A DNA stretch of 64,000 nucleotides from Phoronis australis (taxonomy: Eukaryota > Animalia > Phoronida), in NCBI GenBank assembly GCA_002633005.1, contig NMRA01000168.1:499129-563128 (forward strand), given 5' to 3'. The notes under the pieces were generated by a model, which saw nothing but the letters and a program-made list of their open reading frames with translations, ran no database searches and had not been told where the DNA came from. Positions 388 through 62,075 of the stretch are shown in pieces. The position numbers and the translations under genes were made by a program. How positions within the stretch are numbered: position 1 is the stretch's first letter; the number at the start of each line of letters is the position of its first letter.

Positions 388-3300
388 CATATCCAATTCC
401 ACAGCCACAATTAGTAACAAAACAGTTGTCGATGTCCTTTGTCAAAGATGAACCCTTCACAATCTTGCCGACGTCTTTTTTAAATTTCTTGACAGCCTTT
501 TCTCTTACATTTTTCGTGTCACCACAAAATCCGGCTTCTTCGTTGGAACAAGAACTGTAAAAAAAAGAAAACAGATTTCAAAATATTACGATAGCCAAGC
601 AAGAATCAGTTAAACGCTTATAAAAAACAGGTTCAATTAGACCTCATTCGAAAAGGTTCAGGCTCTGGCAGTCCAAACGAAAAATCAATGCTTTGAGATA
701 ATTTATAACACAAATGCTCACCGTTTCTTCCAAAAAAAAAATTAAAATCGATAAAGCATTGTGTAGCTCACTGGTAGCTAATGGTCCTTACGCCAGTCTG
801 GCCTATACAATCAAATCTTGGTCGCCTAATGCTATTCAATGTGAAGCTGAAAGTGATGCACAGCATGCAGCATACTTACTGTAAGCTCAATACTTTTCAT
901 TACAGGTAGACGTGCCCGGGTCCACAAAAGCATACAGCTGGAGTTCAAAGAGTTCTACCATTTTATGCTCATATCTAAGCAAATATTGCAAGTTTACTCA
1001 AGCCTATCTTCAAATTCACAAAATGGAAGTTATGTCTGTATTACATGTACATGTAGCTTGTCTATGCAAAGGTTATAATTTGTCTATGCATGTCTGACTA
1101 GTTCACATATGGTTGACCAATTAAACTCACTCATAAAAGTACAAAAATCCGTTCCCACCAACTGCAGGTCTGATTGCAAGTATTGAGTTCTCGTTTCTTT
1201 GGGGTAATGTAGTTTTAAGTGGCATATGTGTCTTAACAAAGCTCATTGTATCAATGACATATTGAGTGATAATGCTAAGTCACATGTCATTCTGCATCCT
1301 AAACATAAACCTTTACTCTGCTTACGAGCATTTGTCTTCCGCGCGGCCATTTTTCGTTTTAAAACAGAAAAGTCCACGTTAGAATAAGGGGATGACAAAT
1401 AAAATCGTCAGATGGAAGGAGTAATAGTCGTTATAACAACTATCATTTGATGGTGCAAGGCCAATAAACTTGAAATAATCTCACGTGGGTAAACATTGAA
1501 CAATCAGTTTGGTAAATATGCAAGGGTAAAAACATAAAATAGCCAATAAGAAACACAGCGGTGATGAGATTCGTCCAGAAGTCATCGTCGTCCGTTGTGG
1601 TATTTCCAAATTTTGGGAAGATACTCCAAGAGATCCAGCTGCGGACGCTGATGAACCCAAACTGCGTCCAGAATATGTATAGTTAGGGGCATAAAAATGA
1701 TTATTTCAAATTCCCCAAAAAACGTGTGCAAATGGGATTATGGTGTTTAAAGGCAAAGGCAACCTTTTTTCATGTCATTTTTAGCAAAAATTAGGTTCGT
1801 TGGTTATCCCAGACATATTTTCAACTTAATTACAGCTTTTCGTAATTTAACTAAATATTCGTTCTCTACTCCGGAAGTGACGTTTTGGGAGGCAAGCATT
1901 TCCCGCCAATTTCTTTTCATATAGTCTGACTATGAGAGCTGTCGCCTCAGTCATTGATCTACCTCCGTTGTGATAAGTTCGGTCGTCGTTTGCTTTTGTT
2001 TACGAGTCAGTCAACATGCCACACTGTTGCTGCGTACCGGGATGTACTCATTATGGCCCAAAGCTTGTAAGCAGCCCTGCTGCGATGTTGAGTAGTGGGA
2101 GTGAATACAGGTCCAGTCAGTGAAGAGTACAGTTCATCGTTCAATGACCAGATCGGTGAGCCAAACTTTGATACGTTTATTGTGGACTTGTTTAAAGTAT
2201 TGGAGCTATTTAGATGGTGCCAGGTGTCTGGCGAGGGAGTCACACGGCGGGGTGTAAGCAGTTTGTGTGCTCAGGTCACTATCCAGTGGGAGTGTTGTCG
2301 CGGTACACTCGGGCAAATGGGACAGTTGTTCCTATGTCCGTGAGACAATAATGAGTACATCCCGGTACGCAGCAACGGTGTGGCATGTTGACTGATTCGT
2401 AAACAATAGCAAACGACGACCGAACTTATCACAACCGAGATAGAACAATGATTGACTCGGCAGCTCTCACAGTCAGACTATATGAAAAGAAATTGGCGCG
2501 AAATGCTTGCCTCCCAAAACGTCACTTCCGGAGTAGAGAACGAATAATTAATTAAATTAAAAAAAGCTGTAATTAAGTGGAAAATTTGTCTGGGATAACC
2601 AACGAACCTTATTTTTGCTAAAAAAGACATGAAAAAGGGTTACCTTCGCCTTTAATGTCACATCTCTAGAGAAAGGCACAAGAGCCAAAATTCCGGTGAC
2701 GAAAAAAATACACGAAAAAAATGTGTCAAAGAGTCATATTAAGTGAATATACGACCTATGATTTGACAAACTTCGCAAAAGATCTATTGAGTGAAGTTGT
2801 TAGCGCAAAGTGACAGAGTCTTTGGTCTGGAAGTTTGAATTACCCATCTTTATCAGACTGCTCAGTGATGAAATAGAAGTCTTCTCCAAACGGAAGGTCA
2901 AGGCAAGCTCTGGTTGAATTTACGGGGTCGATAAGTGCTCCTCCTGTTGACAATGTATACTTTACATGTAGACACATCCATACAAAGAAGGTAACAATAA
3001 AAGGAATTAGATGCAAAAGATATAAATCAAGACTTCGTGAAACTTTTTGTAAAACATTTTCCGACGTTGCCGAGCCAACCGGCTCCTTCTACTGGGCATT
3101 GATGACTGACTGTTTCCCTCAAAAATTTCGACGCTCTCTGCCAGTGTTCACAGCCAACAACTCCAAGGTCATGAACCACGAGTCGTACATACTGAAAAAA
3201 GTTCCCAGCTTTAAACCAGGCAACCTCTCTGACATCTCGCTCAAACAAAAAAATCTCTCTGTCCAGTACTCCCTCCAAGTCGACTGTCTCAAACTAGTGT

Positions 3301-6300
3301 CCTGCGCCACAAAATTGAACAAACACTATTGAGACTAGACCACTGGCATTTGCCCTGCGAGGCTGTGCTATGTGTTTTTTAAGCGACCATTCGCTATAGC
3401 TGCCTCTCTGCGAGGATCTGCCTAGAAGTTTAAAGTGGAGCGCTTGAGAACAGCGCTCACGCCCGTTGACACACTCAGGATTAACTTACTGCACGTCAAG
3501 CCAAACCTCAGCGTGGTGATGTCGGTGGAATTGTGTACCACATTATCTGCGATTGTGACGCACGTCACGATTCCTATGTGAGTATGAAAGTGTATGGCAC
3601 AACACCGCAGGGCAAATGTCAGTGTTTTCAACACCACAGTGCTTGTTCACCTTAGTTAGACGTGACACTCGTTTGAGACAGCCGGCGTGACGTTACTAGA
3701 CACAGTCCTTGAATTGAGTGGGGGTGTTAGTGAGGCTGTCTCGGTTAAATCCAAAAACGCTTCTTTGAATTTCTGTGAATAGACACGGAAGGATCAGTTT
3801 TAAGTTGTTTGACTCAGGTGTTCGCCTAGGGCCTTACAGATCTTGTCTATGAACAAAGGGCAACGATTTTCTTTTTCGCAGGCAGGCATCAATCCCCTGT
3901 AGAAAGCCCTGGATGACTCTGTAACGCCCGGACAATTATTTTACAGTAAGTTCCAGAAATTGTGATTTATTATTTTTCGTATCTAGTTATTCACCTGGGT
4001 GAATAGTGATGTCCATCGCCGAATAATACATGCTCCTCTCAAATACGTATTTGAGCCAATAGCAATTTTCAGTTGTGCTTATCAGAGAGTGGAAATGTTG
4101 TTAACGCAACTTATGACCTTGCCGCAACAAATACTCTTAATTCGCAAGGTCCATCACAATTTCTTAGTCACACAGCAAAATTTCTAAGAACGTGATCTTG
4201 AATCAGAAGGGGTATCTATGTATGATTGAAAGATACGTAGATGGAATTTTGCATATTTTGTAATCAAAACTCCTCGTAATCATGCTCGTTTTACCTTCGT
4301 TGATCTGTGTTGCAAAAGAGTTCAATTCCTTATACCATGGTGCACCTTCTGCATCCCATACAGTAAGCCTTCTAGATTCACCGACGACTTGAGGACGCAT
4401 GTCAAGATAGACTCTTTCTTTGTGAGCACCAAGTCCTAAAACCATTTGCTCGAAGTTAAAAATGGCGAGACAGCTTCGAGTCGTTTCTCTTGCCAGATCC
4501 ATCAAGTGTTTCGAACTCTTGGTGTGTTGCAGTTCCACGGCTTGACCACTTTGAAAACGGAAATTTTCTTGCACATGCCTTCTTGTAATATCCTGATTAT
4601 TGACTGAGTAAGTTCTATAAGCCGATTTATCCGCTATTTTGAAGTCCTGGAACCTGCCGCGAAGAAGTTCAAGACATTCCAATAACTTATCATCAAGTCT
4701 AAAAAAGTGTTTTCCGGGGTAAACAAAATCCTTTACAGAAAAGTGTTCTGAGAGTTTCTTATTTACGTCTCGCCCGTCTAATAACTTAGTTGTCCTTGTC
4801 TCATTTTTAAGTTCTTCGGGGTATGAATATTCGTGAGCCATGTATGTGGGTACATCGATGGCCAGAAGTTGTGCTTTTGGAAAAGATACCATTTCCCCTA
4901 GCTGTTCTTCTTGTGGAAGTGCGCATACCTCGAGAACGTTGTTAGCTCCCATTTTTACATAATCGAAACCCGCGCACTGAGCTAAAATCGAAAGTTGTCG
5001 CAAATCCTCCGCGGTAGCGTTTTCCAGCTTAAGCTTTGCTGCCCTGAAATAATTCAAAATATCAATATGTTATTGATTGGAAACAAGGTTTAGCACGAGA
5101 AGAACATAGCATTACCTGGGGTCGTAACATGTGGAACCACCAACGCCTCCGAGTCGTTGTGGTACAGCTACTCGCGATTAGATAACGCAGAGTGACCACG
5201 CAGAGAGACCACATGTAGATACAACTATTGACTATGGAAATATCAGCATGTTCATGAATTTTCGAAAACCAGAGGTGCTGCGGATCACGCTGCAGAACTA
5301 TCTTGTCGATATTCACCTGCCCTCATAATGTAGTGAACCGTCTGGGAACTTTCCCCACGAGTGTCTACTGCTGGATGTTTTTTCACTCCAAGCATCTTGA
5401 ACTTGAACTCGGCGACCGTCTGTAAAAGAGAATAGCCATTTCTTCGTAGATACAGATGCGACATCAACATGCAGTACGTAAAACTCAGACCAAGAAAATT
5501 AACTAGCAAAATAAAATGGGGAAATGTAGATTCACGCTTTCTGCTGACCAATTAAACTGCATTTTCAATTAACTTTGTTTCAGATTCAAACCAATGTCAC
5601 CATCGGCATTGCAGCTTCAATGAATCTCGAAATGTGCTTGGACAGACTACTAACCGAAGATTTACTCATATCAACTTCAATACATTCAAGCCATCAATAG
5701 AAAAAGATGCAAAATTTTCCACAATAATTCGAACCGAGTCTTAAATACTTAATGACTTATATTGCTCAGTTTCTTAAATGGGAATATTTTCAACGAACCG
5801 AAAAAGTTTCAACGACAGGCGGATTAAAAGCTTGTGGTAACACAAAGTAAACGGGGTTCTCATAACGAGGAAAAATGTGGTTACCACTCCATTTCTGTGA
5901 TGCCAAGCTAGCGAGGCGTCTTAGGCGATATGCAAGACGAAACGACATCATCCTGTCCGCACATCTATCCATGACGCCATCTTCCTCACTGGCATCGTCG
6001 CATGAGTTGCAGTGCTCTCCGTGTAAACCACACCAGCTGTCAGTCTTCTCATCGTTAATGAATAACACGTCATCGAAGATATAATAGAACAATCTAAAAT
6101 GCAAATAGTACGCGAGTATGACATTACAGGAATAAGCCCTGTACCCCCGATACCTGTACTCGAGTTTTGCACGGTTCATATTAACTGCATTTACAAGTGT
6201 TCTAACATAATTTTGAAGTACGTTTTACGCCGATCGAGTTATGAGTCTACAGCAACTTGAAATGAAATTGTGCCACGTCGTTGCACATAAAATAGTGAAA

Positions 6301-9300
6301 GCCCAAAATTAACAGCTGAGTTACGCAAGTACAAGCTGTTTGCGAACGCGATGCATTGAACACTTAAGATACTCTTTCGTAAGTTCTTGTCACTTTAAAA
6401 TAAAGAACGAGCCTACAAAACGCATTGAATCAGACAGTACCACTATATCCGTGGTTTCCACGAGTTGTTTGCCTTAAAATGAAACCCAAATGTTCCACAG
6501 CAAAACATTAACCAAAAAAGTAATAGCCCGGCATGAGGCTTCAAAAGAAATACGCACTGCGAGAATCTTTCATCACTTCTTTTCACAGGGTAAACGATTG
6601 GTTTGCAAAATTCTTCTTCTGACTTCGGGTCCCTTGAACTCTGACCTCTATTAAGAGCCGCAAAGTCATCCCCACACCACTCTATAGAGGGCCAATCACC
6701 TGAATTACAGAATTATTGCGAAGATATTTACCATCATAAGTGATTAGTTCGAAATTTTGAGCATTTCATACGCCGATAAAGTTATTGTCACTATTTCGTT
6801 TATTTTTTTTCAAAATAAAGTAGCCAACTTAAGAGGTGGTTTCTGCCTTCATTGATATTTTGGAGACACAGATTTCGTTACACGACACATAAGAATTTCC
6901 TAAATGATCAAAACTGTATCGTTGCTAAGATCTAATTTACATGGTGATCTTATTTGAGTTGAGGCAAAGAGTAAAGGGCTAACGGCTATTGAGTTCCATT
7001 GACACACAATTTAAGTAATCGAAATATGTCTAAGTTACTGGTTACGTAGTTTAGGGCTCTTTTTCATGAAATGGGAATTTCGACTAAGGTCAGAAATTCG
7101 ATCTTACGCTCTACAGAATTTTCTGGAAAAGGCCCTTTCAAAGCCTCGAGTATTATACATAATCATATTGACATAATTTGTAAAAACTATGTCTAGGCTT
7201 CGGTGTGGGATATAACTAAACTTTTATTCATGAATTCTCAAGTGGGGGCGTGAGACCAAATTAATGACGTAATTCTTTTTAAGTCACTTTTTAAGAAACA
7301 GACGCCAGGCTCCGTTCCCGGAATGCCACAAAAATGGCAGGGAAAGCAAAGGAAATTTAATCCTCAGTGATAGCGTTTACCTCCACTGTTCGGGCTAGGC
7401 CCAGAGCTTTCCGTGCTCCGCTTTCTTCTAGACGTAGAGTGGGACGTGGTTTCTATCTCATCTGTCTCGATACTTATTTTTGAAGAAGAATGGAGGTTTA
7501 GAACAATCATGTTGATTTTGTTCACAGCGGGTGCATGAGTGAAAACTGCTGAGCCCGTGCTTTCAAGGAAGTCTAACTGCTTCTTTTTATCGTTCGTTAC
7601 TCCTCGTCCACAGTGATAACCCGACTGGGGTTTGAATGTTACGTCGCCACCGGACTTTCGCACACTATTCAGTTTTAGAGCTTCTTCCAAGATTTCACAC
7701 CTTGGATGTCCATAACCTGCGTTCCAAGGATCTCCCGAAGAGATGATTACGCTTGGCTGAACTATGTTCAGAAAGTCAACTGAGTTTGCAGCACTACCTT
7801 TGCTACCGTGATGAGCAAGTTTGTATACATTGGCTCTAGCGTGACGTCTTTCGATTTTTGCAACCGTAGTTGCTCCCTCAATATCTCCGACAAATAGCAT
7901 GCGCAAGTTTCCGTACTCTAGTCGAAGTACAATGCCATTGTTATTTTTATTGCTAGTTGTCTGTGAAGCAAGAAGTACACGCATCACGGCAATAGTAGGT
8001 GCTGTACAAATTTGGTATGATCGGCAACTGTCCTGGCACTTTTCAATGGGTACGTACGTAAAGTTTTTTAGATTATCCTTTAAAGTCCGTTCTTGGGGCC
8101 GTGGATAATAAAGCTTTATGTTTCCTCGTTTCGTTTGCGGAATACGACGACCGATGAAGTTAAAATGGTCGGAGTCTGCGTGGGTAACAAATATGTGTTT
8201 GACCTTAGACATCTGTTTATTGTTAATGAAACTGTCTAGATTACTTTGAGAGAAGTAGCCCTTCGTTTTTGCGGATCTCGAACCCAAATCCACGAATGTT
8301 AAATCTCCACTGGGACACTGTATGACAACGGCATCCCCTTGTCCTACTGGAAGCTCATATACGCGGACAGCGTCCGGTAGTGGCCTTTTCAAACCTAGAA
8401 AAACGAAAACGTATTAGCCAGTATGTTAATTTACAGATATTTCAGTATCCTCGAAAAACGTTAAAGGCACTTTGCCTAAAACACATTGATGAAAAATACT
8501 AGTTATTGGTGGAGCAAAACATCTAATTGTCACATTGCAACTTCTTTATCCTTTTATCACCTCATTTTGACATTTTACAACGTCACGTGGTTAGTCCCGG
8601 TTATTGTACAAGACAAACGCATTCGCGATATTAACATTCGCAGTGTCAATTTACGTGTACTAACACAAGAACTATCATTTCAACTACACAACGATAAATA
8701 ACTCACAACGTAACACCTTGACTCAGCAAATCTGTGAATTATTTCCTGTCCTAGTTGCAAACTAATACAGTAACTGAAATCGTTACCTGAAGCTCCACGC
8801 TTAACATGTATGTTTATGTCTTCTCCGCTTAAAAATATGGGTTAAAGGTTTCTGAAATCATGCAGTGGTATCAGCCAAATATTTAAGTGTGCCAGCAAAC
8901 TAAAAGTTATTTAAATATTCAATGCCCAAGGTCGAACACCCCAATCATTGATTAACCGCACGTTTGAAGAAAAGCCAAAGCTATTTAGTTCTTTGCTCCT
9001 TTCTACACGTATAAAAAATTAGCAAATTGGGCACAACCATATGCCTTAATATTCATGTGAGCGATGAAACAGTTTCGTTTATTTTTGCATGGTGACGACA
9101 GTCAGGACATTGCTTCTTCCCATTGTTCGGGTGTAAGAAAAAAATAACATTTTAGGACCACGCGCATGAACATTACAGCAAAGGTTGAATTAACTCAAAC
9201 TTCAGTTGAGTCAAGTACAAAAACATAGTAATATTAACTTTCTTAGCATAGGCACATGTATCTCTATAATGAGATCAATTGGGCTTACTTCAAAATAAAC

Positions 9301-12300
9301 TCTTGTCTTTCATTGATTCAAGACTTGTCTAGTAAAATTGTATTACCGCCTTTTTCTCCAGACAAATGTGTTTCATGAGCAACCACAACAAACTTGGAAA
9401 TAAAAAGGAAATGAAAAAATGCTAGTCGGTGTTAAAACTGAAGTCCGACTCGCTTGACTGCTATCATTATATACCCGACGCCACCGTCAAAGAAACAGTC
9501 GTTCTGAATTTTAGGAACATCTTACCTATAGGTCTACATGTAGGTGATAAAATTGCCTAAGCTGCACATTAGAAAGATATGGCGGCAATATGCAGGCACA
9601 AACTTATATGTGGGTGCAAAATACAACTTTATATTTTCGTAACACACTCATCGACACGCCACTTTTGCAGTTTTTAAAACTATAATTATAATATAAGTGA
9701 TTCGTTGATTAGGGACAAATGTTACCCTTAGTTTAGAACAGCCTCCAGCATCCATTAATAATTTTCAAGTATATTGCATTGGAATAGTTACGTTATGTTG
9801 AGACTCTCCAAAATTAAGTGTCTGATACACTCGACCATAAATCTATCTGACACCCACTGCCAAAGGAAATAAAAATTTTCCATCATTCATCCAATCCATA
9901 CACACGACCAAACATCGCTCTGTGTGTTTATCTACATTTCAATCGGTAAAATACCGGAATGATAAAAGTCAGTGAAAAAACCAATACCGTTTCATACTCT
10001 TAAAGAGGAAGGCGACCATTATATACTGTCATTCCTAGATAAATAATGAATAATACTTTCTTACTCATCCCAGTCACTGTTCAAGTTAATTAAACTACTC
10101 CAGATTCTAATTAAAAGCATACTAAGCGCAGTTTTAGCCAATTAACAGATATTAACAAGGATTTCCCCATCCCGCTCTCTAAAACATTAGTTTTGTCACT
10201 CTCATAAATTCAACCCTCAAATGTTTGTATCAAGTTTAAAAAAACGCCTTATACAGAATAAGTTATTGCCCAACAACAAATCAAAAGACTGACTTAAACA
10301 AACCACAACATCCATTCTCTGACACAGTAATTATGTGTTTTTCGCCTTTATTATCCAAGTGAAACGCCAGTGGTCCATTAGCATGTGACTCAGCCAGGAT
10401 TGATTGAAATCACCAACACAGAGTTTAATATCCCTTTAAATATGGATTTGTCACTCATTTGTGACGTTAGTGGCCGGAACAATTCGCTGTCCTCTTGGTT
10501 ACGCTTCATAGTACACACCTGTTGATTGTATATTACTTTCCATTGCCGCAATCATTTGGTTTCGACAGGTACTCTTGAACTACCCTACATTGAATTAGAA
10601 CTAAGTTGAGTGGGAATTAGCTAGTAGCAGGGTACCACAAGTACACGAACCACATGCATAGTAAGGCCTGCTGGTTGTTAGACAATGACCATCGTCTCTG
10701 TCTGGATAGAGACAAAGGTCATTGTTTAGCTGGTTGTGGGCTTTAGACAATGCGGTGACTGTTCACACGCACGGGTGAAACCATATTCATAGCTCTGAGT
10801 TACCTACGTCAACGGGCAACGGTTCATTCTTGACAAAAACGATCCTATCTCGATGGACCTTCCTTAAGATATCGTTAAAATACTTTATTATACTCTTTAA
10901 GAGCTCCTGGTGCTGCCATCTCGCTGAGACCCAGAGAAAGACACATAGCGGACCAACGTGTTATAAGTTTACGTACACAATGATGCATATGATGTCAAAC
11001 CCATTATGATGAGCATATAAACAACGGAGAATGATTTGAGCCCCTAGTGTTAGTTTGGGAGTTACACATACATGATTAAATAGGAGCTGGGGGAATTTAA
11101 TCAGATTGAAAATTGACCATCAAACCAAAATTGAAACAAAAAACACTTGCCTTCCGCTTTAACTGATTCAAGGGTACTTACTTGTCATGTACATGTTTGC
11201 CACTGTATTCTGTTTTTTAGGTTGACTGGTCACGACGATTTTGTCTTGTCGTTTTTCCACATCGCAAAATTCAGCACAGTTGGCCAATTTCTTCAATTTG
11301 GCAAGAGTCTCTGGGCTGTTGTCAGCAGTGTTCGAATCACTACCAGTAACACCTAATTCTACTTTATAATTCCCTTTGCTTGAAGGTCTCACTAAGAGTT
11401 TACCTGAAAGTATTAAGTGAGTGACTTAACAAATCATGAGTTTTCGCATGAACACAAAGATGTTCGATAAATGTCAAGCTTGGAAACTCAGAAAGCAATA
11501 TATTCCAGACGATTTATCCAGTACTCATTCGCTCGCTTTGACCGATTGAAGGTAACGCATTGAGCATCATAACGACAGCTTCATACACAGAAATAAATGT
11601 TCGTTGACATGACCATTCGTCCTCTCCATAACGGATGCAACTTTCTTGGTTCCAGCACTGTAGCCATTATCCAAACAACAAAATTACCAAGAATTATCAT
11701 TACCTAGAGAATATCGAGTCAATGATTCTCCCAAATTACATCAATGGTTTACCCTTTTCCACCCAATCAAAAAACCCTTGACTTTCTCTTGCCCCTAATT
11801 TTCCACTCCAAAAGTCTTCCAGAGTATGATCATATGAAATAATTGTTTTGACATTGTTCGCTGGTATGCTCACGTTGATACTTTTACTTACGCCTGCTCC
11901 ATCCATCTTCGCGACGAACTACATCAACGAAATTACGAATTCTGTCTAATAAACTGGGGTCTACAGACGTTTGTTCATTGCCATCCCATATGACGTATGG
12001 TGATAGAGAGGAGGTAGATGACCTTCAGGAAAACCAGCAATAACAACAAATCAACAAAGTTGTATATGTCAAGCCAGCTTCATAACATGCATCTTATCTT
12101 TTTTGAAAACATCACTGATTAGTACAAGGTAGCCTACAAAGATGCACCACAGCAGCTCCGCTACAAATGTGGGGAACATGCGTTTTTGCATAAATGATCC
12201 ATTTTGTTTAGTTTGTATATAGGCAAGCATGTTACAATTGAAAAATCGTCAGTGACAAATTATAGGCCAAGGTTCATTCATATACATATACATATACACA

Positions 12301-15300
12301 TACATATATAAATACATACATACACACATACACACATACACACATACATACATACATATATGTGTATTTAAACATCGCATTTGACAAACTTCGCATAAGC
12401 CCTCGTGTCGTGCAAATACGCAAAATGAGTTTGACGTTGGACAAAGAGATTGTCATTTTTTGTCTTCTGGTTTGAACTCTTGATTTTCACATGAATGCCA
12501 CTCTTCAATGTTTCTGATAAGTCTATCAAAAGCCGAGTTGTATCATAATATTCTCAAGTTACAAGTTGTCTAACTTAGCCCATCAAACATGTTACGTTCT
12601 TGAAATTGTTGTGAGATGGAGCCTTTGGATGGAAGAATCTTACCGGCTGTAACATCTACGAGACTGCTCCAAAATGCACCAGAAAATTGTTCTAATTTCC
12701 ATACAGATACGACCATAAGCAGCAACGCCGTAATTCAAATTTGACTCGACACTCACCGTTGGTGACGACGTTGATGGGTTTCCCGTTTACGGCATTTGAT
12801 TTGAGGAGCAACTGGACAGACCAATTTTTCATCCGAAGCCAGATTAAAAGTATTCACACCAATCGTGTCTCCAAATGCCCATTTATACAACTCGTAGTTC
12901 CTAGAATTATCATTTGACTAAATTGATTGAGCAAACGATATCAAAGGTTGAATATTTTTGCTAATTTGAGAATCACCATAACGTACATGCCATATTATAA
13001 TGACAAACAAAAGAATATTTTTGTCCTCCGGAATCCAAAAAAAAAACTAAAATGAGGACATGATCATGCAAGAAATTTCAAAAAATAAGAACACATAAAA
13101 TTTGTCTAACAGGTTGCAAACTATTTCGTCAACGACTCTGTGCATTGTAGCGTGTAGTATAACACTTTCAAGATGAAATAATATATCAAGGAATTTATCA
13201 ACTTTTGACAACATTTTAACTGTGTCAAACTAAGAACTTGTTACACGTAATCAATTATACTCTTACTTTTCCATTTTGAGGAGTGAGATGGACAGCCTCG
13301 CTTGACGTATTTCGTACGGTACACCAATGAAAAGATCCGCCTTGAAAGTTCCAAGTGTGGCTTTTCCCATAGCCGAATGCAGTTGGTATGATAATTTGAG
13401 GACTGGCTTTAATCTACAATTTATACCGGATCTCTTCAAACAGCATCTCAAATCTCATTAAAATAACACTCAAATAAAAGCGCTAGGTTGGAGCGACACC
13501 TGGAGAAATGGAATGAGAATTGTTGACTACGACATCTGGACCACGCTCCAGGCTATGATGATGACGCTGGCAGCAACACGAATGTTGCCGTCAGCAACAC
13601 AATGCCTGGATAGTAGGTCAACAACGACCACAACAAAACTGAATCGCCATAATGGTATGTTTTCATGATGCCTATTTCACGAAATGAACAAATGAAGGAG
13701 AAGCAGCATTTCAAATTGTCCATACCTGTATTGTTAAAACTGTAAATGCGTATTTGAAACAGATTGTCACACGCACTGACTATTGAGATCGTTGAAAATT
13801 TATCGTATAAATAGCAAAATTGGCTTATTTTGGCAGGTTTATCAGGTAAATGATAACTTTGATGCTTTAAAGAGTGTCAAATAATTTTTTTTTCGAAAAC
13901 GCATTATTTTGTAAGGACACATGAAGAACATGAAAAACCGAAGTCATCGCAAAGGTTATACATGCGTATGGATCGGGTATTATGCTTCAAGTACTTACCG
14001 GAACAAGGCAAAATTTGTTACGAGATATAAATAACATAATCAAGAAAGACCTGGGAATCACCTAGCAACGACAGTTACTGTAATCTGACGCTCCAACAAC
14101 GACGAAACACTAAAAACACCACATCTCTTTCACTGAAGATGACGCAGCGGACGGCAACATCGGCGAGTCATCAATGTAAAAGAGACGAGTTTGATGTTGA
14201 TACCGTGACAACTGCCAGTGATGATGCCATCAATGCTGGCGTTTACATTCAACAACTACATGTACCAACGCTGACAAGTGGAAAGCACACCCGGCAGCTA
14301 TAGTTGGCACTGTACGGGAAGACTTCAGTCGCAAATTGCCAAAAATTAAATACTAAGAGCAGGTAATTACTGTATGAGCGCACCTCAGTCAAGAAATAAT
14401 TTATAAGAATTATCTCAGTAAATAACGGTTATGCGTATATTTTTAGAAAGTGCACTTTGCTTATATGAGATTGAAATATTTTTCAAAAATAGTCATGAGT
14501 CACTCAGTGTCAAGAAACAGACCTCTGGTTTGTGTTTATAATCATAATGAATATATACAGTACTGTTATGTTTTTGTGACATGAAATGATAGCTTTAATC
14601 TGTATTCTGTTATCAATCTGATGCTTCAATGAAAGTATACGTATGTGGCGTCCTTTAAACTACTACCTGCATGGTCACTGATGTTCAAATGGCGTCAACA
14701 TGTTGTAATTGATAACGGGTATCAGTTGACAATGCTCGATAGCAGTGTCAACAATCAGCAATGAAAGTTGTACCAGGTAAATGGTGACCGTTCTGAGCGA
14801 GGTGGCGGCCTAGAAACACTTCATAAGCGAAATCATTTCAAATCGAAAGTTTAATCTATTGGCTGCTCATGACGAAGTTGTGATGAGGACCGTCATTTTA
14901 AAATTTTTAAATTTTAAAATCATTAAAATGATTACTTTCGCTGAACTCGCAAACAGTGTGGCTAGGTGTTGCACGTAAATGTACGTGTAACACTAGGCAC
15001 AGACCTACGTATAATTTCATACTTTCAAAATGTTCAACAAACTAGTCAAATCCTACTGGTTGAGAACGGCAAGAACTTACCCAATCGCAAAAGGCTGCGA
15101 CAACACAATGTCCAGTGCACCGGCTTTTCCCCATCCTATTCCGACTGCCACTTCGACCTGAGACGAAAACATGTTATGAACAAGAAAAGTCGCGTTTTAC
15201 AGCTGCTCCTTTTACAGTTTAATTCAGTTTATTCATTGGTTTAATGTCTCAATATTTTGCACACTTAAGAAACACAAATAAACTCACTGTTGCTTTCACA

Positions 15301-18883: not shown

Positions 18884-18942
<59 letters not shown>

Positions 18943-19064: not shown

Positions 19065-19096
<32 letters not shown>

Positions 19097-26893: not shown

Positions 26894-26910
26894 TTTAGTC
26901 TGTATGGCAG

Positions 26911-52200: not shown

Positions 52201-55200
52201 TGCTGGTCACAGTCTCTGGCTGATGACGCAACACTTCAGGTAGTATCTTACTACCCACAATGCAAGTGACAAGCTCTTAGTTAACTTCCGGTTCGTTAAC
52301 CCTTGCCCTTGCCAAGATCCTTTCTAGAATCTTCCACGAGATGGCTCTGTCGTACAACTGCTTCTGTACACTGTAGCAAGTCTTTATGCTTCAACTACTT
52401 TAGCGCATCTGATTATCTTGCTGATTTCAGCCCATAATATAACATTTTACTTATTTAGTGATTGGCTAATGAAAACCACATGATCATATCCACTCATATT
52501 ATTGGCTGTTACAATTTGTTCTCAGAATATTCTAGAATCTCTAGAGTACTTTGACCCCAGAACCCAAAGCTGTAAACACCATCTAAAAATAGATTTTGAC
52601 GTTAAAATACATGTCAACGAGTCTGACCCCATGATTTAAAAGTACATATGCACAAATTTTGGGCAACTTAAATGGATCTATTCTTACTTAATCAATATTT
52701 ATTCTGACAGTTGCCCAAAGACCACTTCGCCAGCGTAAGCCATTTTCATGGCGCCAAACAGCAAAAGGTCCCGTTTTGATAAAACGGGACCGTTATTTTA
52801 ATTTTGAAACAAGTAAAACTTCTGCTGTGGGCAGCATATTAGAAAGCCACTCAAATAAACACTTTTGTGTTTTATTTGGTAGGTGTTAAGTGCACATTTG
52901 AAGAATTGTTTTTTTTCAGAACCGCTCTCGGGGTTTTTCGAAATTGACATATTCAACACTGCGTTTGTGATTGGAGAAATTGGTTACGTCGACAAACAAG
53001 TTGAATTTTTTAAGGCGCTGGCGTGCTATCAAGGATTTATAAGATACGACCTAAATGTCCTTAAGGTATGTTAACATGGTTATTTTTTCAAATTGTTTGC
53101 GTCATATGCGTTTTGTAACTGTTGGTAACGTAAGCCATGTTTTAGTTTGAAATACATCACAAAGCAGAAGTAATTAGCTCATTGATATACCAACACATAT
53201 CTTTTTTCGAACAACATTAACTACAGGTACATTAACTGAACTAAAAATTTATTGCAGGACTTTGGAATAAACGACATATCTGACCTTGCCAAATTGTTTG
53301 ACAAAATGATTGGTTCTATTCGCGACCCCATAGAAGATGCTGTCACTGCATTCAATAAAATTATCACGCTGTTCAAAGGTACGTTTTTATCGCGTTTTTA
53401 ACCAGGTAATGCGAAAAAGCCCTTCCTTTGATAGTCACTTGAATTACCTTTGGTAGACTTTAAAATAAGTCCTTCAAGTTTAGAACATAGCAATATTTTC
53501 ATCAACAAAACGACATCGCAAAAATACATGAACATGTGGGAACAGTTTATTCACAAATGAAAGTACATGAAGATGTTGGCACACGTTTAGCAAAGCTCGT
53601 TTATGAATGGCAGCCGTTATATTTCCCTTACTTGGCAAAGTTGAACATATTTTGATTATTATATAGATATTTTGAGAATTTCAAATGTTATAATTGGTGA
53701 CGCACACAGATGAACAGAATCACAGAAGTTCTTCCCAGACAACACCGAAACAGTTGTAAGAGCTTTTTTAATAAACAGGGTTTCTTACGGGAATGTATTT
53801 TTCTTAACTTTACTTTCTCAAAGATCTGCGCTGCCAGTGACCCTCAACTTCTGATAACGACTTACTCGCCAGTTTAGACATACAACAACTTTGGGTAACG
53901 TTCACCGTGGAAATTTCATACGTTAAGAATTTGGCGTTTGGGAAATCTTTTTTTATAGTACAAAATATAAGTTGTACTTGCAGCAAAAAATTAAGTCCCT
54001 GAAAGATTGTGATCCGCCATCTTGTGTTCCTTCTTTGTTGTTTCAAGTTCTGTTTTGTTTTTCATAGTTATGCTGACAAGCTAAAAAATTCCAGGATCAT
54101 ATCATAACACTGGATATAGAATACGCGTTTGAAACACTATTTTAGTTAAAGTTTCAAATCAATCGAAAATAAGCATGAATGTCAACCTATTTCTGGAAGA
54201 CTGGAGAAGAATGCAAAGCTAACTGAGCAAGCTCGGTGTGTCTGGAAATGTCCAACTTCTCTTGTGTGAGAGTTCAACGCTTGATTTCGTCCCCAGTTGA
54301 ATATTTTTGAGAGGTAACTCCTCCAATGTACTTTGGAACCTCCCTTCTTTCCTTAATATAAACTCAGGAGTTCAGCCCTTGGTTTTTTTCCATAAAAGGC
54401 ACGCTACACAGCTCGCGTAGGCCATTTTCACGGCACCAAACAACAATGCAGGTGATGCTGCCGAATTGATTTCAGTTACTTTGACTGAAATTATGTCTTA
54501 ACAATTTATTGTAAAACCACATAAAGCATGTTTTTTTTGCTATCTCGACTCACGAAAACGTTTCAGTCAATTGAAGTTGACCAACCTCAATATTGGTTAT
54601 TCGAAAATTGCGCACAAATTCATTGACTGTGCGTTGGTAGTGTAAAAAGAATCGTATCACGGTTAGAAATGTTATGGGACCGACTTTAATAAAGTAAACG
54701 GCCTAATTTGTCGCTTGTTTTTTAACCAGCTAAACAGGAAAAATGTAGCATCAAGCATCCTTTTGCTTCTCAGCTGGAACAAATTCCGAACTCTAAATGA
54801 ATAGCAAGAAACTCGACTTCTCCAATTGCAGGGAAAGGTCTCAAAGGAATTATTAAAGATTTCGTTACAATCATCCAGGAATTACCCAAACGACTAAAAC
54901 ATTTGGTTGAGAACATCATCAAATTTGCCAAAAAGGTCAGCGATTACGGACGATTGCCATGGGTTAAGGCAATCAAAAAAGTCATCTACAGAATTAAGCA
55001 CTTCATTGAGGACGTCAAAGGAGATATAATGGATTTTTACAACGTAGGTATAATTATGAAGCCTTGCCGTTTCGTGACAATTGTAGGTCATAGTTGCGAC
55101 ATGGTAGTACGCTTATTGTGGGGAACATTGACACCCTAAGAGTAGGCCTACGGCTACGAGGTGCGCACTTAAAAGGGATCAAGAGTTAGAGTAAGGGCTA

Positions 55201-58200
55201 TTGCAAACACACACACGGAAGCGTGTGTTGGCCAGACGCATCTTCACAATATGAACGCTTGTACCTTCAGGACTACAGTGTCTCGCTGTATGGAACAGTA
55301 ACACATTGGGATTCAGCATTGTTTCTTAACTTTTCACCGCATTTTTGGACCAACTGTCCTTTTTATGCTTTTTTATTCCTAAATGAAGTTTTGGATTTGG
55401 CATACGCTGAAGGTAAACTGCATGTTGAATTTTCAAACTCTGACTGAAAATGAATAACGATCGGTCCATGAAACGCCTTGATATAAGAACTGAGTATCTA
55501 ATTATTGTATGTGAAACAAGGGCCCAATCTAATTTATACTGTTATACATTGTCAATTGCCGAAGAGGAGTTCACAATGAAAATAAAACATTGAAAAATTT
55601 AACATTTGTATTTAAACAATCGCAAAAAATACGCAAAAAATTTAGGGACATTAGATGCGTCCCTAGTTGTGTCTTTTTAATGGAACAAGGAACTGAACAC
55701 CCAACTTAGTTCAAATAAGAAAATCTAAAGGTGTATTCCATTCTCGTTTGTGTTGTTTAAAAATCGAATGGTATGTAGTTTAGTTTATCAGTTTAAAAAG
55801 AGCTACTTTATGTTTGGTGTATGTTTTATTTCTGTCCGCATCTCTGTTCTCCAAACCGATTGAAGAATTACGATGCCAGGTCAAGAATGTGTTTTTTATT
55901 GCGGAGAGCATAGCCGACTTGCTTCTCGTAGTTGGTATTGTATTTGGGCTGTAGGCACTGCTTTGTAACGCATCTAGATCTGTCTTTAATTCTTGTTCAC
56001 CTTGAATCATGGAGACGTTGTAACGTCTACGAAACAGGAGCTGAATTAACATTGTCAACAAAACGAGCGTTTTTACATTTCCTTTTTGTTTTTATTTTTC
56101 CATTTTAGAGCATTGTAGATGCAATTACAGTCACTCTACCGTATGTGGGAAGGCGTATCATCGATGCAATCAAAATGATAGTGCACGCCGTAAGAACATT
56201 GATGAAGAATCCGATGCAGTCAATATCTTCGATAATGGATGCAGTCATGAAGTGAGTACTCATGGATATTTGAATTGATGCGCACTGACAGTGAATGGAA
56301 ATCTAAGTTGGTCCTTAAAATCTTTAGTGGGATTTCAAGAGAAGGGCTAGTACGAAATAATCAAGTTTTCTATTATGCAGCGCAACTAAGTAAACTCCTC
56401 GTGGCTTGGATTTTGAAATTGGTAGTCGATAAGTGAACATATGCCATCATGGTATTTCTTCTTAGATGTTTACACAGTGCTACAGGTGAAACATTTATTG
56501 GAACATCGTTACTTATTTAGGCACGTTTTCACGTGACTAGGTCACCTAAATGAGGCAATACATGAATAGTGTTTTGTTTTCGGAGCATTATTGTTTAGCA
56601 CCGGAAAGTTAATCTATACCTCTTTCGAATCGTGCTACTTGCGGTGACAATTCACACTAAAATGTTAACCGAAGACGTCTAAATAGGAATGCTTTTCTTG
56701 CAAACATTGGTAATTTTTTCAGAGATTGTAGTTACTCCAGATAAATAATAGGAAACAAGTATTCCATGGTCTCTGATTTAGTCATGAAAGAAGGTAGTTT
56801 TAATGACACCAACTTAGACTCATATTTATTTGTCTCTTTTTTACCCATATTAGCGCAAACCTGTATATTTAGTACACAGCTTTGTGCTAAGGCTAGGGCA
56901 GCCTTTGGTATGCGATGACCATCCCTTTAGAAGACATCTTTGTCAAAGCATTGAACAACCAGGAGCCATACAAAAAGGGATGGCGAACCTTTTCCAGCAC
57001 TGTGGAAAACATTAAAAAACAGGAACGGCTGATACAATGATAAAATACAATGCAAACTCTTCACAATATGGCACAGCAATATGCGATAGGCACTCGAGGT
57101 CCCAATAGCACGTCACTTGCATATCAGCCAATCAGCGAAGTCAGCATTTCAGTCCTTTGATAATAAAAATGAATGAGCTTTTGTTTAGTGCTCAACTTGG
57201 GCAAATTTGAGATTTATTTGTATATTAGCACATGTTAACTGCTGCTTTATTTTACGACAGTCCCCTTTTAAATTTCAAGAAAGTGATATGATTAATTTGA
57301 TGTTAGTTTTTGACTCCAGTTTTGTCTTAAGTTGTGAAGTTACTGGATATATAGAAATTTCCAAGTTTGGAGGTGGAGACCAATCTTAGACATAAGTCAA
57401 AAATATCCAAGAGTTAGTTTCTTGGAACGGTCCCCAGAAGGTGTTTTTACTATATGTAACTACAATACGAGATAGGCACCGCTGCTTTAGTAAATGTGTC
57501 TTAGATCGTAATCTGACCTTGAACTTAGGCAAGCGTAATTCACTTGAGACCTTATTTCTTCGACCGCTTCATTAAAATGAATCATTTCAGCATCAAGATG
57601 GCCATATCCATGGTTATAGGTGCCAAACAAAAAATTGAAGAAAACTGCTTCTTTTTGTGGGGTATGTATAGAAAGAGTAGAATCGAACGCAAAATCGATA
57701 TTTGCTTAGGTGTGTCAGTCAATTCGTAGTGAAACTGAAAACTCTGGAGTTGAACTCATCAGGCTGGAGTTCAGTAGCTGTAAACTAGAAAAAATCTAGG
57801 AAACCACCTGCTCTCATTTAAAATACACGGCAACACCTCGCGTAATCTCGCGATGTCCTGCCTTTTTAGCGAGGTGCTAGCAACGTCCTAACGTTACTGA
57901 AATCTACCCTGGCTTCACTAACGTAAGAGAATTTAATTACAAACGTGAACATTGCCCCACAGAATTCGTCTGTGTCCCCATTTAATATAATAACCCTAAA
58001 TTCAAGAGTAAACAGTCATACATACTATATAAATGATATAGTTGCTTGAACATGAGTTATGTTTGGAGTCGTTTGCATCGATGTCCCATTAAACATACTT
58101 CATTGGAAATCAGCTGTGTTGCTTAATGTAAACTCGCATTTATATGTTAAAAGATGAGAAGAGACCCGTGAGTTATTCCTCAGACCTTATTGGATGCTAA

Positions 58201-61200
58201 TAGTTAGACCCACCAAATCGTTATTTTGAACAATGCCTTTCGACAAATGCAGGCTTTTTTATTATAGACTTGAACATTTTTTGACTTTTTCTTATTTAAA
58301 AGTTGTGTCTTCAGCAACGTATGTGTATTTGTAACTTCAGGGGAGTTGCCGTACTGGATGAACCCTGGGGCGGAACTTAAATATCTCGTGGAAGACATAA
58401 AAGACGCCATTGCGGAGGTTGGGAAGTTTTTGAAGCGCTTGGCAGTAAATAGAAACAGAAACAGAACTCCAGTAAACTTGCGAATTGGTCCCGAAGACGG
58501 AATACTTTCACAGGTATAGTCTGTCCAAAGTGTACTTTGGAAGCAGTTAACTATTTTGGTTTATTGTCTGAGGCGAATATTTGCATTATAATCTGTAGTA
58601 GCAAGCTAGAATACTTATCTCTATACAATGTGCTATTTTGAGCATAATCACCAATAAAGAGCGAGAACCTTTTGATATATGGAGCTCCCTATGACAGCAG
58701 CAAACGAGACAGAAAATCTGGGTGGTATCAAGAAAACTCATACATGTATTTAGTGTTTGTAAGGAATTTTCTCCCTCAACATGTTTCACTTTCCAAGTAA
58801 AATGTTCTATAATTTGTACGTTAATCGTATGATAAAGGATCAATTTAAATGGAATACTAAAAACGGTGCACGAAGACAAATTTATGCTTTGTCATTGGCG
58901 GCCACATTAATCGATGTTATCGATATTAATACAACCCGAATCATTCAAATTTAATAATTGTGTTTCAGGAAGAGCAAGAACGTAAAATTGCAGAGGAGTT
59001 TGTTAAAATGCTACGAGATACACTTAGTCCATTGAACGAAATGCTACAATTAGCCAGGCCTTTCATGGACGCGTACAATTCGGTCTTCGACACCATTCGA
59101 GGCGTAAAAAAAGCGTACCTTCAACTGACTTCGGTGTAAGTATTGCATATCTCACTCTGTTCATGTTGAAACTGTTGCCAAGCAATTCTACACATTGGCA
59201 GCGGTGAGGTCTTGTGATTAAACACCACAATAACACCACTTTGGTCTGGTTGGGGTCTCGCTGTTGTGGCGAGTAACAGTTGCCCAGTGTGGGTAAGGTT
59301 TCATTTGAATTCTGTTTTTGACTGGATTTTCTCACAAAGACAACGAGTTGAAAAGCAAACTAACCTACAAACTATAGATGCAACAACCTGTCTGAAAAGA
59401 GGTGTACTTCCTGAGGCTGCTTAGTATTGCAGCCCTATAAAATGGTGTCATTATCATTGCACTATGCTACGATGAACTTGCCTATTTTATTAAATTCGTT
59501 GTCAACATTCGTGTTCTAGGGTTCAGAAAAGCAGGGCATTGGTTCAAAAAATCTTCGGCCCGAAGTTTCACATCGACTTTCCAACTTACCGTGTGGATTG
59601 CGAGGAAAGCGCCTGCGCGTGCGGCACATTTCCATCAGTGGTAAATGGCAACTTTCCAAAAGGAGTTGATGTTCGAGCCAATAAACATGCCAAGGTGAGA
59701 TGGATGGAAAGATTTAGTCAGACTGTAACGCGGCTATGCACTCGCGTTCGGTCAAAGAAATTAAGTTTACATTGAGACCACTTACTGCTGCAAAGTTGAT
59801 CTCAGAGAAGAGAGTGCTTCTGGGCTTAGGAAACAATAATGACATCGCTGTTGCCTGAATCCATGCTCAGTGTAGAAAGTAATCCGCCGTGACCATCTTA
59901 ATTATATAGCCTAGTCTCAAGCAACAACAACGTCAGTTCTGTTCAAGCCCTTTCGAACACCTCTATTCTAACTGAGGAAACATTGAGACCAACTTCATTA
60001 AGCTTAAATAAATGATTCCATTAAAAAATTGGAGTTTTTCACGGAAGTCGGCTTGAAGCCATTTGTAAAGAAGCCGAAACCTATTTACCGACATGTCTGT
60101 GATTATACTTAAGCTCATAAGAAGAAATGAAAATTTTGGCTTACCGACAATCAAAATGTAATGAAAAGGTGTTGTGTCAGGTGCTTATTACGGACTCGGA
60201 GAGAACAGTATCGCTTTGAATTTATGTTTGTATAAATCTGCTTGAAGTGTTTTTCTGTGAAATATTTTTTGGAGATGTTGTAAAAATTAATGACATATTG
60301 GATGATTAAGTATAGTTATCATTCTTGAAACGACAGTTAAAGAAACCCACGTTATGAGATCTACTTTTAATGGTGAGAGGTATGACCGTGTTGAATTGTG
60401 GTTGACCTTATGGAGGTCACCTTTTGCTACACTTACTTGCATTGTTGTCTTATAAATTTCGTGTTTTTCTGTTCAACAACTCAATTTTGTCCTGTGCAAC
60501 GTTTTCTGAATACTTGTGAGCTTGAATTAATGCTTCGAACATGGCAGCATGGAACAAATTAATTTCAGGTTGTGAATCCTACCACTGGGCTGGTAAAGAA
60601 ACGAAACAACAACGAAGTTCTTATCATACCAAGCGAAGGTGACTTTTTTGAGTACGAAATCGTGATTTCCAATATCGAGCCATCGGGTAAAGTAACAAGT
60701 GAAGGAAAAGTGTTCCAGGCTGGCGAAAAGATTGGAAAGGTTGCTAAATCGCAGTGTAAGCCGTCATTTATTCACGTCGCGGTTAGAAAGAAAGCAGAAG
60801 CCGATGAGGAGTTTTCAAACGATGACGACTATTCGTACATTGATCCTCTGCCGTTTCTTGAGAGAGCCTTTCCAGTACCGCGATGGATAGAAGATTGCAA
60901 AGAATTCTCCCTGGTGTACATTGGACAGACTGCTGACGCTGGCGAAATCGGGGATGACGTACAAGAAACTATAGACGATGTTAAACGTAAATATGAAGAT
61001 CGCATGGAGAATCCCGAGTTTGAGCTCTCTGAACCTGATCCCGATTTGACCTATAGGCCTCCAGGAATGGCAGAAGGATCATCCAAGTCGCTGCAGCAAA
61101 GTTTCCAAGGCGCCCTCGATAAGTTTAAAGATGTTAAATCTCTGTTCAGTGTAAATAGGTAAGGTTGAGGGAATTCTTGCATGCCGAAATTTGATGGTTT

Positions 61201-62075
61201 GAGACATTCTTTAGTAATTTATTTTAAAAACTAGAGTGAGATCGAATTGGAAGAACATAGGAAAAAGAAATTTATGGGAAAAACCTAAGCATGGTCAAAA
61301 CAGATACATGTAGACAAGGCATAATTTGTATTATCAGCTAAACGCTGCGTTTGGCATTGTGTTTCTGGATAAAAAGGAACTTAGAATTAGCCTGTTCATT
61401 ACTCCTATGAAATCAGTCTCATAATGTTCCTTTCCGCGGTACGGTTGAATATCTATTACAATTAGCAACATCAAAAATATAAGGGACTCAATAAAAAAGA
61501 AAAAGTTTTAGACTTAATTAGGGTTGGCCAAACATAATATTTAGAATTGGAAAAGGGCGTATATGTACATTGTTTTCGACTTGATTGATAACGGAACTAG
61601 TATTCTGTCATGACAATTATGAAGGCGATTACATGCGAGTATAGTCTTCATTCGATTTTCGTTTTTTGCCAGCTTAACACAGCGGAATGCAGAATGTTAT
61701 GGTACACAAACTTGGACACTTATTTTCCTGGAAAGCACAAACGTTTATTCTTTCTAGGTGTAATTTAAGACAGCTAATTTCAGTTGACCGATGTGTATTT
61801 CAGCGGCGCTCCAAACATTCTGGATAAACTGAATGTCAACGAATTTTCCATGCGACGTATTCTCGATATTCTTGTAAAGGCAGCCGAAGCTGACATAAAA
61901 GCAAGATTGGACGACATAATTAATAAATTTTCGACGTATTTACGCGCACAGCCAGTACAGCATCCAATCACGTTTAGTCCAAACGAACTTCGGAGCATGC
62001 TGAGGCGAAAAAATATCGAACCAAGAGGATCTTTGGAACAGATGGCGCTTCAGTATATCAGATATCCTGCTGGAG
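30042..62075 (+). CDS. Gene R: multi-exon secreted large-lipid-transfer (Vitellogenin_N)-domain protein with helical region, LECT2/M23-like domain and SAP-like motif; no stop found, probably continues past the window
   Basis: 26 phase-consistent GT-AG exons with no stops: 30042-30197 (MGSIVAPSFFLLTFLFGQITG signal peptide), 30666-30756, 31139-31175, 31555-31675, 34963-35118, 37272-37363, 38327-38373, 40475-40529, 41132-41195, 41307-41391, 47012-47295, 47635-47689, 48148-48288, 48741-48964, 49115-49245, 51005-51186, 52920-53065, 53258-53378, 54832-55043, 56109-56251, 57591-57661, 58341-58513, 58969-59135, 59520-59694, 60569-61158, 61804-62075. Confidence 0.88.
36239..37130. mobile_element. Non-autonomous DNA transposon with hAT-like termini and a 5-bp TSD
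   Basis: CAGTGGCGGATCTAG ... CTAAATCCGCCTATG termini; TGCTA at both 36234-36238 and 37131-37135; second copy at 46048-46973. Confidence 0.8.
38395..38670. repeat. Degenerate (ATC/GTC)n low-complexity tract
   Basis: Decayed CATCGT/CATCAT runs. Confidence 0.6.
41682..41870. repeat. Degenerate (ATT/GTT)n microsatellite
   Basis: Direct reading of the sequence. Confidence 0.9.
46048..46973. mobile_element. Second copy of the 36239-37130 element; left end cut off at the N at 46047
   Basis: Shares long blocks with the first copy (GCGCACAGCACCGAATGGGGG, TATGGTCCACAGCGTTTGCGCGCGAAACCTACTTCTTTTTGTAATG, GGAGTCGTAGTGCGCAGCGCCACTGCCGGTCGCCTGG) and ends CTAAATCCGTCTATG. Confidence 0.85.
51819..52709. 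mobile_element. Solo LTR (Gypsy/BEL type), 891 bp
   Basis: TGTCAGA...TCTGACA termini; 5-bp TSD GTTGC at 51814-51818 and 52710-52714; internal short direct repeat CTTGCTGGTCAC(C/A)GTCTCTGG; no coding remnant. Confidence 0.75.
59520..61158 (+). CDS. Gene R exons (59520-59694, 60569-61158): LECT2-like / peptidase M23-like domain with an incomplete zinc site
   Basis: C....CACGTFPS....FPKGVDV.......VVNPTTGLV...AGEKIGKV.......SFIHVAVR...IDPLPFL is colinear with LECT2/M23 CD..GCGQY...HQGVDI....VYAPFTG...KGEKLG...SHVHIE...DPTAYL. Confidence 0.75.

Follow-up and report, generated by a model that had tools for sequence, protein, structure and literature searches.

Accounts of the origin of Hedgehog weigh Hedgehog itself, Hedgling and bacterial Hedge peptidases, and the zinc triad of the LAS folds (M23, M15 and Hedge) consists of H-x6-D plus H-x-H (PMC6027127). 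Hexaxilin is a six-cysteine, ComEC-type metallo-beta-lactamase (MBL) of glass-sponge skeletons, and the Lingula protein XP_013422193 has been listed as hexaxilin-like with long insertions (PMC10772126). The fold nearest to the ComEC nuclease is that of the teichoic-acid phosphorylcholine esterase Pce (PMC12455585), and the catalytic residue of CD38 is Glu226 (PMC5700923). Here we analyse 64,000 nucleotides (the window) of Phoronis australis contig NMRA01000168.1 (positions 499,129 to 563,128, forward strand; assembly GCA_002633005.1), which hold parts of two large genes, L on the minus strand and R on the plus strand, where such folds occur together. An original prediction from the letters alone had taken L and R for a pair encoding one secreted complex. 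We found that the conserved unit is the core of gene L, made of Hedge, M15 and CD38-fold domains, rather than the L/R pair. The L family is apparently undescribed and ranges from choanoflagellates to amphioxus.

To define the genes we used four RNA runs from one organism, X1 as contigs and X2, X3 and X4 as raw reads from one study, aligned to window positions 1-18400 (likeness cut-off 90) and 46800-64000 (cut-off 92). Stranded reads showed that both genes are spliced and expressed, and both extend beyond the window edges. For gene L, X2 and X3 gave 14 minus-strand junctions spanning 554 to 18056, and the X1 contigs contain seven of the 13 junctions tabulated. Joined to four 5' exons placed by eye, the RNA exons form a single open frame of 1499 codons in the window, so that the protein has at least 1499 residues. 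Positions 388 and 62075, at which the original prediction had ended L and R, are both splice donors, so neither gene stops there. That L continues to the left follows from this donor, from 190 more bases past it in an X1 contig and from ~200 more residues in relatives; an in-frame stop near 380 was rejected because 388 is a donor. A longer exon 1 reaching 26618 was also rejected, on worse homology, while with the GTGAGT donor of exon 1 the E value against an N-terminal profile of molluscs fell from 3e-33 to 7e-41. Hydropathy of the N-terminus peaks at residues 1-19. RNA and window differ by several substitutions per exon and by in-frame indels at 11317 and 58451; this is high polymorphism.

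From its N-terminus, L carries a signal-peptide-like segment, a beta-rich domain, a Hedge remnant, the MBL, a furin-type site, a full Hedge domain, an M15A-like domain and the start of a C-terminal domain (Table 1). The beta-rich region is homologous to mollusc orthologues and to Lingula XP_013422193. Two Hedge-like modules had been proposed; one is a full domain, but the first is a 38-residue remnant in which the family Hedge profile matches residues 626-663 only (E 8e-5). Relatives carry a full Hedge domain at this place. The M15A-like domain, also proposed, was recovered by Pfam (E 0.07), by a PHROG endolysin match (E 2e-4) and by the structure of a relative. Residues 1426-1494 match the start of the family C-terminal profile (E 7e-9), and the last in-window exon is predicted, from the model of a relative, to open a CD38/ADP-ribosyl cyclase-fold domain that was absent from the original prediction.

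A search with the M15 exon of L found 62 proteins, 30 of which were looked up, and the best family hit was a Lingula fragment. The long form (1327-1490 residues) occurs in Haliotis, Sinanodonta, Argonauta, Octopus, Batillaria, Saccostrea and Pecten and has the order beta-rich, Hedge, Hedge, M15-like, C-terminal domain. The short form (~950 residues), with the order M15-like, Hedge, M15-like, C-terminal domain, occurs in Owenia, bivalves, Asterias, Anneissia, Glandiceps and Branchiostoma. Saccoglossus is also among the named members, and those of the sponge Oscarella and of a choanoflagellate reach 2.1-2.3 thousand residues. A 30-row tree placed window L inside the long-form clade (support 100/100), adjoining Lingula (92/80). 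Named entries are only 'uncharacterized', 'hypothetical' or auto-named after the Hedge domain. No description of the family or of the gene pair was found in the literature searched, which was mostly open-access, and the family is absent from the accessible parts of PMC9695228, PMC6290081, PMC4595640 and PMC6339383. Pfam scans of 21 relatives found no Hint/Hog domain and no vWA, cadherin or membrane anchor.

Some members have additional domains. The choanoflagellate protein has an M15_4 domain with intact motifs, endolysin matches and C2; the sponge protein has trypsin, PLAT and a stretch matching a cyanobacterial peptidoglycan-binding protein (E 7e-4). The M15 domain of the family is linked to stand-alone M15A (PF08291) proteins with intact sites, one of which has a peptidoglycan-binding domain, and to a phage endolysin family. 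Three small proteins with intact M15A sites also have the sequence signature of the family (P0149, a foraminiferan entry in which M15 is fused to M23, P0153 and P0157). Eight short forms (P0131, P0133, P0139, P0142, P0148 and P0150-P0152) have a polybasic furin site directly before the CD38-fold domain, where cleavage would release that domain. Oyster P0120 (residues ~730-900) and pearl-oyster P0123 (N-terminus) share an insert that splits the second Hedge domain and looks phage-lysozyme-like by eye.

The folds were assigned on a structure model of the oyster relative P0108 (pLDDT 88.9, pTM 0.74). Its Hedge domain has the fold of the Sonic hedgehog N-terminal domain (ShhN; Z 18-19, rmsd ~2 A, 30% identity), and the Hedge domains of relatives match PF01085. 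Its M15 domain superposes on 1LBU (Z 10.2, rmsd 2.4, 117 aligned). Residues ~630-880 resemble CD38, BST-1 and Aplysia cyclase: Foldseek gives E 2e-4, and ~200 positions align at rmsd 4-5 and 11-13% identity (Z 10.3-11.8). This last link is structural only, since the profile of the family alignment A1 matched only Hedgehogs in the PDB by sequence. Besides the window exon, A1 contains two cluster members and 44 of the 62 hits; the 18 short or distant hits left out include four stand-alone M15A proteins with intact sites.

The claim that every LAS zinc site in the window is incomplete was borne out. The Hedge triad of L reads H/K/E (the first His is retained, while Lys replaces Asp and Glu the last His), the M15A-like triad F/E/Y (Phe, Glu and Tyr in place of His, Asp and His) and the M23 triad of R P/D/H. 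Judged from the aligned sequences, the loss of zinc ligands in LAS folds is family-wide. Among A1 rows with all three columns filled, none of 33 for Hedge and none of 45 for M15 has a complete triad. The Hedge Asp column is Asp in one of 38 rows, and all 45 M15 rows have Tyr or Phe in place of the last His; the last Hedge zinc column is less securely aligned. In the CD38-fold domain we mapped by eye the positions of the catalytic Glu226 and of Trp125 and Trp189. The Glu226 position is Leu or Ile in all 30 rows and neither Trp position is Trp, while a Glu146-like position is acidic in 19 of 28 rows.

The MBL of L lies on a single exon of phase 1-1, a pattern expected under exon shuffling. As had been claimed, its site is complete and of ComEC type. 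The metal motifs THADSDH, GD, HHGS and GHP are all intact and align one by one with those of the ComEC nuclease domain 9IC4 (E 8e-14), and six cysteines are present. The ComEC model TIGR00361 matched with E 3e-17 and 62 bits, far under its cut-off of 190, and only in its MBL part; the competence channel and OB domains of ComEC were not matched in L, which has the MBL domain alone. Three variants listed from the RNA leave the metal motifs unaffected. A homologue search with this exon among proteins of 612-2000 residues returned bacterial ComEC only, at no more than 32% identity. None of 69 stored relatives has an MBL, except for an MBL tail in Lingula P0100 (0 of 10000 shuffles), and the long-form orthologues of molluscs lack it. 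Lingula XP_013422193 is an L orthologue, with the same N-terminal domain, MBL and then Hedge in both. Being of ComEC type, with six cysteines and orthology to this listed protein, the MBL of L can be placed with the hexaxilin-like proteins. Direct transfer from bacteria into gene L was rejected in view of the existing animal hexaxilin-like clade, a decision made without a tree. From these comparisons the MBL is best described as an insert of particular lineages, derived from an animal family, and as cargo rather than core effector, because molluscs lack it and the Lingula copy has one broken motif. The effector role given to it by the original prediction is weakened on the same grounds.

Gene R has a plus-strand transcript in X2 and X3 with at least 12 junctions from 47295 to 61804. 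Three further joins (49245-51005, 53378-54832 and 59135-59520) are canonical and in frame and are not among the RNA junctions listed. RNA exons and nine 5' exons placed by eye form a single open frame of 1305 codons (at least 1305 residues) with GT-AG sites. R ends in the window at the GT donor at 62075 and likely continues past it. The beta region of R resembles, by motifs that we take to be typical, the module of large lipid transfer (LLT) proteins. When single exons were searched, Pfam Vitellogenin_N matched one of them with E 0.042 (profile positions 478-508), and Atlas called the helical domain HEAT-like (0.94). The LLT module claimed for R is thus suggested by a marginal Pfam match and by an Atlas result that is only HEAT-like, whereas PDB sequence searches with the R exons were blank. 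The hydrophobic moment is 1.2-1.9 at residues ~650-960 and 0.5-1.0 elsewhere.

The M23/LECT2-like domain of R met with a divided outcome. Atlas called it with 0.91-0.92 and the 10 best named hits were all of one family, with only 146-152 shared features; by contrast, the exon had no Pfam or PDB sequence match. Its single-sequence model reached pLDDT 42. HxxxD has become PKGVD and HxH has become FIH, so that neither the catalytic His nor the first zinc His remains. This degenerate M23-like domain is similar to LECT2, from which it differs in having also lost one zinc His. A SAP-like motif seen by eye in the last in-window exon had no Pfam SAP match, and no homologues of R exons were found in a search of proteins up to 2000 residues. 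By its sequence, gene R may encode the N-terminal part of another giant protein, distinct from L and lipid-transfer-like, in which the M23 domain is dead.

We then considered what the two proteins might do. Our preferred reading, held tentatively as a possibility that falls somewhat short of even, is that L is a secreted, furin-cut scaffold that grips bacterial walls and carries swappable enzymes. L would be secreted and then cut by furin at RQRR and RRKR, giving an N-fragment with the beta domain, Hedge remnant and MBL and a C-fragment with Hedge, M15 and the CD38 fold. The disarmed Hedge and M15A folds would grip bacterial wall material in mucus, with the peptidoglycan stem peptide as ligand. 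L would thereby bring lineage-specific enzymes to the wall, here a phosphodiesterase-type MBL, likely active from its motifs, which could cut DNA or phosphodiesters of bacterial wall polymers. The protein of gene R may serve the same secretion. The wall-related add-ons of other members (M15_4, endolysin, peptidoglycan-binding-like stretch, by-eye lysozyme-like insert) point to bacterial walls. In favour of this reading we also count that the folds persist although the triads are lost, that the M15 domain is linked to intact M15A proteins and a phage endolysin family, that the MBL motifs match those of a ComEC nuclease close in fold to Pce, and that L and R have a common on/off pattern. Several observations weigh against such a platform. 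The top fold hits of the P0108 model are Shh-chondroitin and Shh-heparin complexes, and dead LAS folds can, by analogy, bind matrix glycans rather than bacteria. Hexaxilin, the nearest described animal kin of the MBL, belongs to a silica skeleton and its metal motifs have decayed, so the MBL may have a structural role, and Lingula XP_013422193 has QY instead of HH in one metal motif. The family takes in predators (octopus, sea star). A lysozyme reading of the bivalve insert had zero support from Pfam, PHROGs, the PDB and phage tblastn. The CD38 fold and the loss of its catalytic Glu are predictions that come from a relative's model and by-eye mapping. Finally, the X1 contigs contain L exons and no R exon, which 3' bias (X1 depth on L drops toward the 5' end) and the lower level of R may explain.

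Alternatively, L and perhaps R would have a structural role in the matrix of mucus, cuticle, tube or shell, with their dead folds binding glycans or one another rather than bacteria. This is doubtful, but it has substance: all core enzyme folds are degenerate, expression is tissue-restricted, hexaxilin is a precedent for the same MBL clade turned skeletal, and Hedgling, whose motif is likewise incomplete, has a body of adhesion type (PMC6027127). It fits less well with a window MBL that retains all its motifs and with cell-wall-enzyme domains that recur as add-ons in sponge and choanoflagellate members, and the Lingula genome paper and its supplement yield only a domain count for these domains. 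The bacterial-wall flavour of the folds and extras of L is our reason for favouring a bacteria-binding platform over a matrix role. Two further proposals concern single domains. The C-terminal domain could be an active NAD glycohydrolase or cyclase, freed by furin and targeted by Hedge and M15 to microbes or cells. In the model the CD38/cyclase fold spans the whole domain, furin sites precede it in many short-form members, the Glu146-like position is often acidic and bacterial toxins use the fold (9ro8, 8ka2); but, with Leu or Ile mapped by eye to Glu226 (PMC5700923) throughout, no Trp at the Trp positions and such low identity, we regard activity as very improbable. A role of the Hedge domain in signalling, as a ligand of Patched- or Hhip-type receptors or as a decoy for them, is more improbable still, despite its closeness to ShhN and the fact that fly Hh signals without a zinc motif (PMC6027127), for L has no Hog domain, its Hedge lies inside the chain and packs against other domains (pTM 0.74), and the family is older than animals.

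We consider it unlikely that L and R form a conserved pair under joint regulation whose products assemble into one lipoprotein-like secreted complex, with R as lipid scaffold. N-terminal hydrophobic segments and furin-type sites were found in both genes, as claimed, with start codons at 26893 (minus) and 30042 (plus); the divergent, head-to-head order, like the 5' exons at 20716-26893 (L) and 30042-41391 (R), is a sequence prediction and not an RNA result. Divergent starts 3.1 kb apart speak for a pair, although 3.1 kb is a long distance for a shared promoter. Summed junction reads were 306 in X2, 162 in X3 and 0 in X4 for L, and 128, 68 and 0 for R. The X2/X3 ratios are thus near-identical (1.89 and 1.88), while the libraries differ 1.12-fold, and X4 has no L junctions though it covers repeats. 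Shared tissue and shared promoter are alike compatible with this pattern, which comes from three runs of one study. The co-expression suggested in the original prediction was therefore seen in so far as, of the three raw runs, X2 and X3 express both genes and X4 neither, but in one study and with R, about half as abundant as L, missing from X1. No L-R fusion occurs among the stored relatives. A wider synthesis would make the bacteria-binding scaffold (disarmed Hedge, M15A and CD38 fold) pre-animal, a third home of Hedge that kept its original context of bacterivory or defence, to which lineages add wall- or DNA-attacking enzymes and which is here co-transcribed and assembled with R, the beta-rich domain of L possibly completing the short LLT module of R; taken as a whole this is a long shot.

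Coordinates are collected in Table 1. The window has an animal-type composition (~38% GC), no Rfam or tRNA matches, and 24 other open reading frames without Pfam matches. Overlapping the last in-window exon of R, minus-strand transcript reads were seen at 61724-62297 and 63446-64000 in X2 and X3 and not in X4, the same on/off pattern as L and R. The transcript at 61724-64000 may represent a convergent or antisense gene, and its open reading frames have no Pfam match. Introns contain two high-copy inverted-repeat elements that resemble miniature inverted-repeat transposable elements (1747-2655 and 62794-63196), with many loose read ends. Dispersed intronic repeats lie at 36288-36986 and 46048-46749, at 31866-31995 and 34190-34319, and at 51900-52700. 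Microsatellite arrays lie at 12279-12358, 18880-19126 and 41678-41814.

Table 1. Features of genes L and R in window coordinates, with the basis of each.
Feature	Position	Strand	Basis
L first exon, with start codon, signal-peptide-like segment and beginning of N-terminal domain	26684..26893	-	predicted
L beta-rich N-terminal region, residues ~70-550	12757..23966	-	RNA joints, open frame, GT-AG sites, homology
L beta-rich region, predicted exons	23852-23966, 21917-22013, 20716-21159	-	open frame, GT-AG sites, homology
L beta-rich region, RNA exons	18056-18116, 17033-17273, 15709-15833, 15081-15157, 13267-13413, 12757-12900	-	RNA
L conserved furin-type RQRR in beta-rich region	21057-21068	-	sequence
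L degenerate first Hedge module	11182..12022 (exons 11892-12022, 11182-11403)	-	family Hedge profile
L ComEC/hexaxilin-type MBL	7381..8394	-	Pfam PF00753, 9ic4, TIGR00361
L furin-type RRKR ending MBL exon	7418-7429	-	sequence
L full Hedge (ShhN-like)	4900..6699 (exons 6558-6699, 5885-6093, 5317-5419, start of 4295-5043)	-	RNA joints, profile E 1e-54
L M15A (Zn D-Ala-D-Ala peptidase)-like domain	4295..4900	-	Pfam, PHROG, relative's structure model
L linker and first helices of C-terminal domain	388..2943 (exons 2844-2943, 388-554)	-	RNA joints
Interval between divergent start codons of L and R (3148 bp)	26894..30041		sequence
R exons 1-9, signal-peptide-like segment and LLT-like beta region	30042..41391	+	predicted, by eye
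R 5' exons	30042-30197, 30666-30756, 31139-31175, 31555-31675, 34963-35118, 37272-37363, 38327-38373, 40475-40529, 41318-41391	+	by eye
R LLT-like alpha-helical domain	47012-49245	+	RNA joints
R furin-type sites RIKR, RSRR	48764-48775, 51039-51050	+	sequence
R short beta-sheet segment	51005-53378	+	RNA joints
R long amphipathic helical region, residues ~650-960	53258..59135	+	RNA joints, hydrophobic moment
R M23/LECT2-like domain, then acidic helical stretch	59520..61158 (exons 59520-59694, 60569-61158)	+	RNA joint 59694-60569
R last in-window exon, SAP-like motif by eye	61804..62075	+	RNA joint 61158-61804

The novelty of this locus resides in the L family, and the two-gene system is unproven. 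The family is a widespread third Hedge architecture that a sponge and a choanoflagellate already possess and that combines Hedge with folds of cell-wall peptidases and NAD enzymes; it offers a testable route and context for the origin of the domain. It accounts for extra HH_signal domain counts in lophotrochozoan genomes (five in Lingula, three in molluscs). It also leads us to reinterpret the brachiopod 'hexaxilin-like' protein, which had been linked to silicification, as an exon-shuffled MBL insert in an L-type scaffold.

Compared with known systems, L shares the ShhN-type Hedge domain with Hedgehog and with the Hedgling of sponges, cnidarians and choanoflagellates, and like Hedgling it has neither a full H-x6-D / H-x-H set nor a Hog domain. 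In the L family, however, Hedge is internal, in one or two copies, and joined to M15A-like and CD38-fold domains. L lacks the passage from Hedge to vWA, cadherin repeats and membrane anchor seen in Hedgling, and where Hedgehog ligands continue into autoprocessing Hog/Hint, the M15-like and CD38-fold domains occupy the place after Hedge. The six-cysteine ComEC-type MBL is the same as in hexaxilins, but these are stand-alone proteins of ~350 residues with decayed metal motifs, whereas the motifs of L are intact; the main text of PMC10772126, in its accessible part, handles the flanks of Lingula XP_013422193 only as long insertions. The MBL shares THxDxDH, D, HHGS and GHP with the ComEC nuclease (9IC4) and Pce, although L is a probably secreted animal protein without channel or OB fold. 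L shares the M15 fold with peptidase M15A (1LBU) and with rusticalin (PMC6339383), a secreted animal protein, but the domain of L is of M15A rather than M15C type, has lost its zinc ligands and is part of a multi-domain chain. The C-terminal fold is modelled to be like that of CD38, BST-1 and Aplysia cyclase, but it is fused behind LAS folds, has 11-13% identity and by eye seems to lack the catalytic Glu. Gene R has a predicted signal, a beta region, HEAT-like helices, a sheet segment and amphipathic helices, features reminiscent of MTP, vitellogenin and apoB; it differs from large lipid transfer proteins in that its candidate LLT module is short, no vWD occurs in the window, and M23 and SAP-like modules follow.

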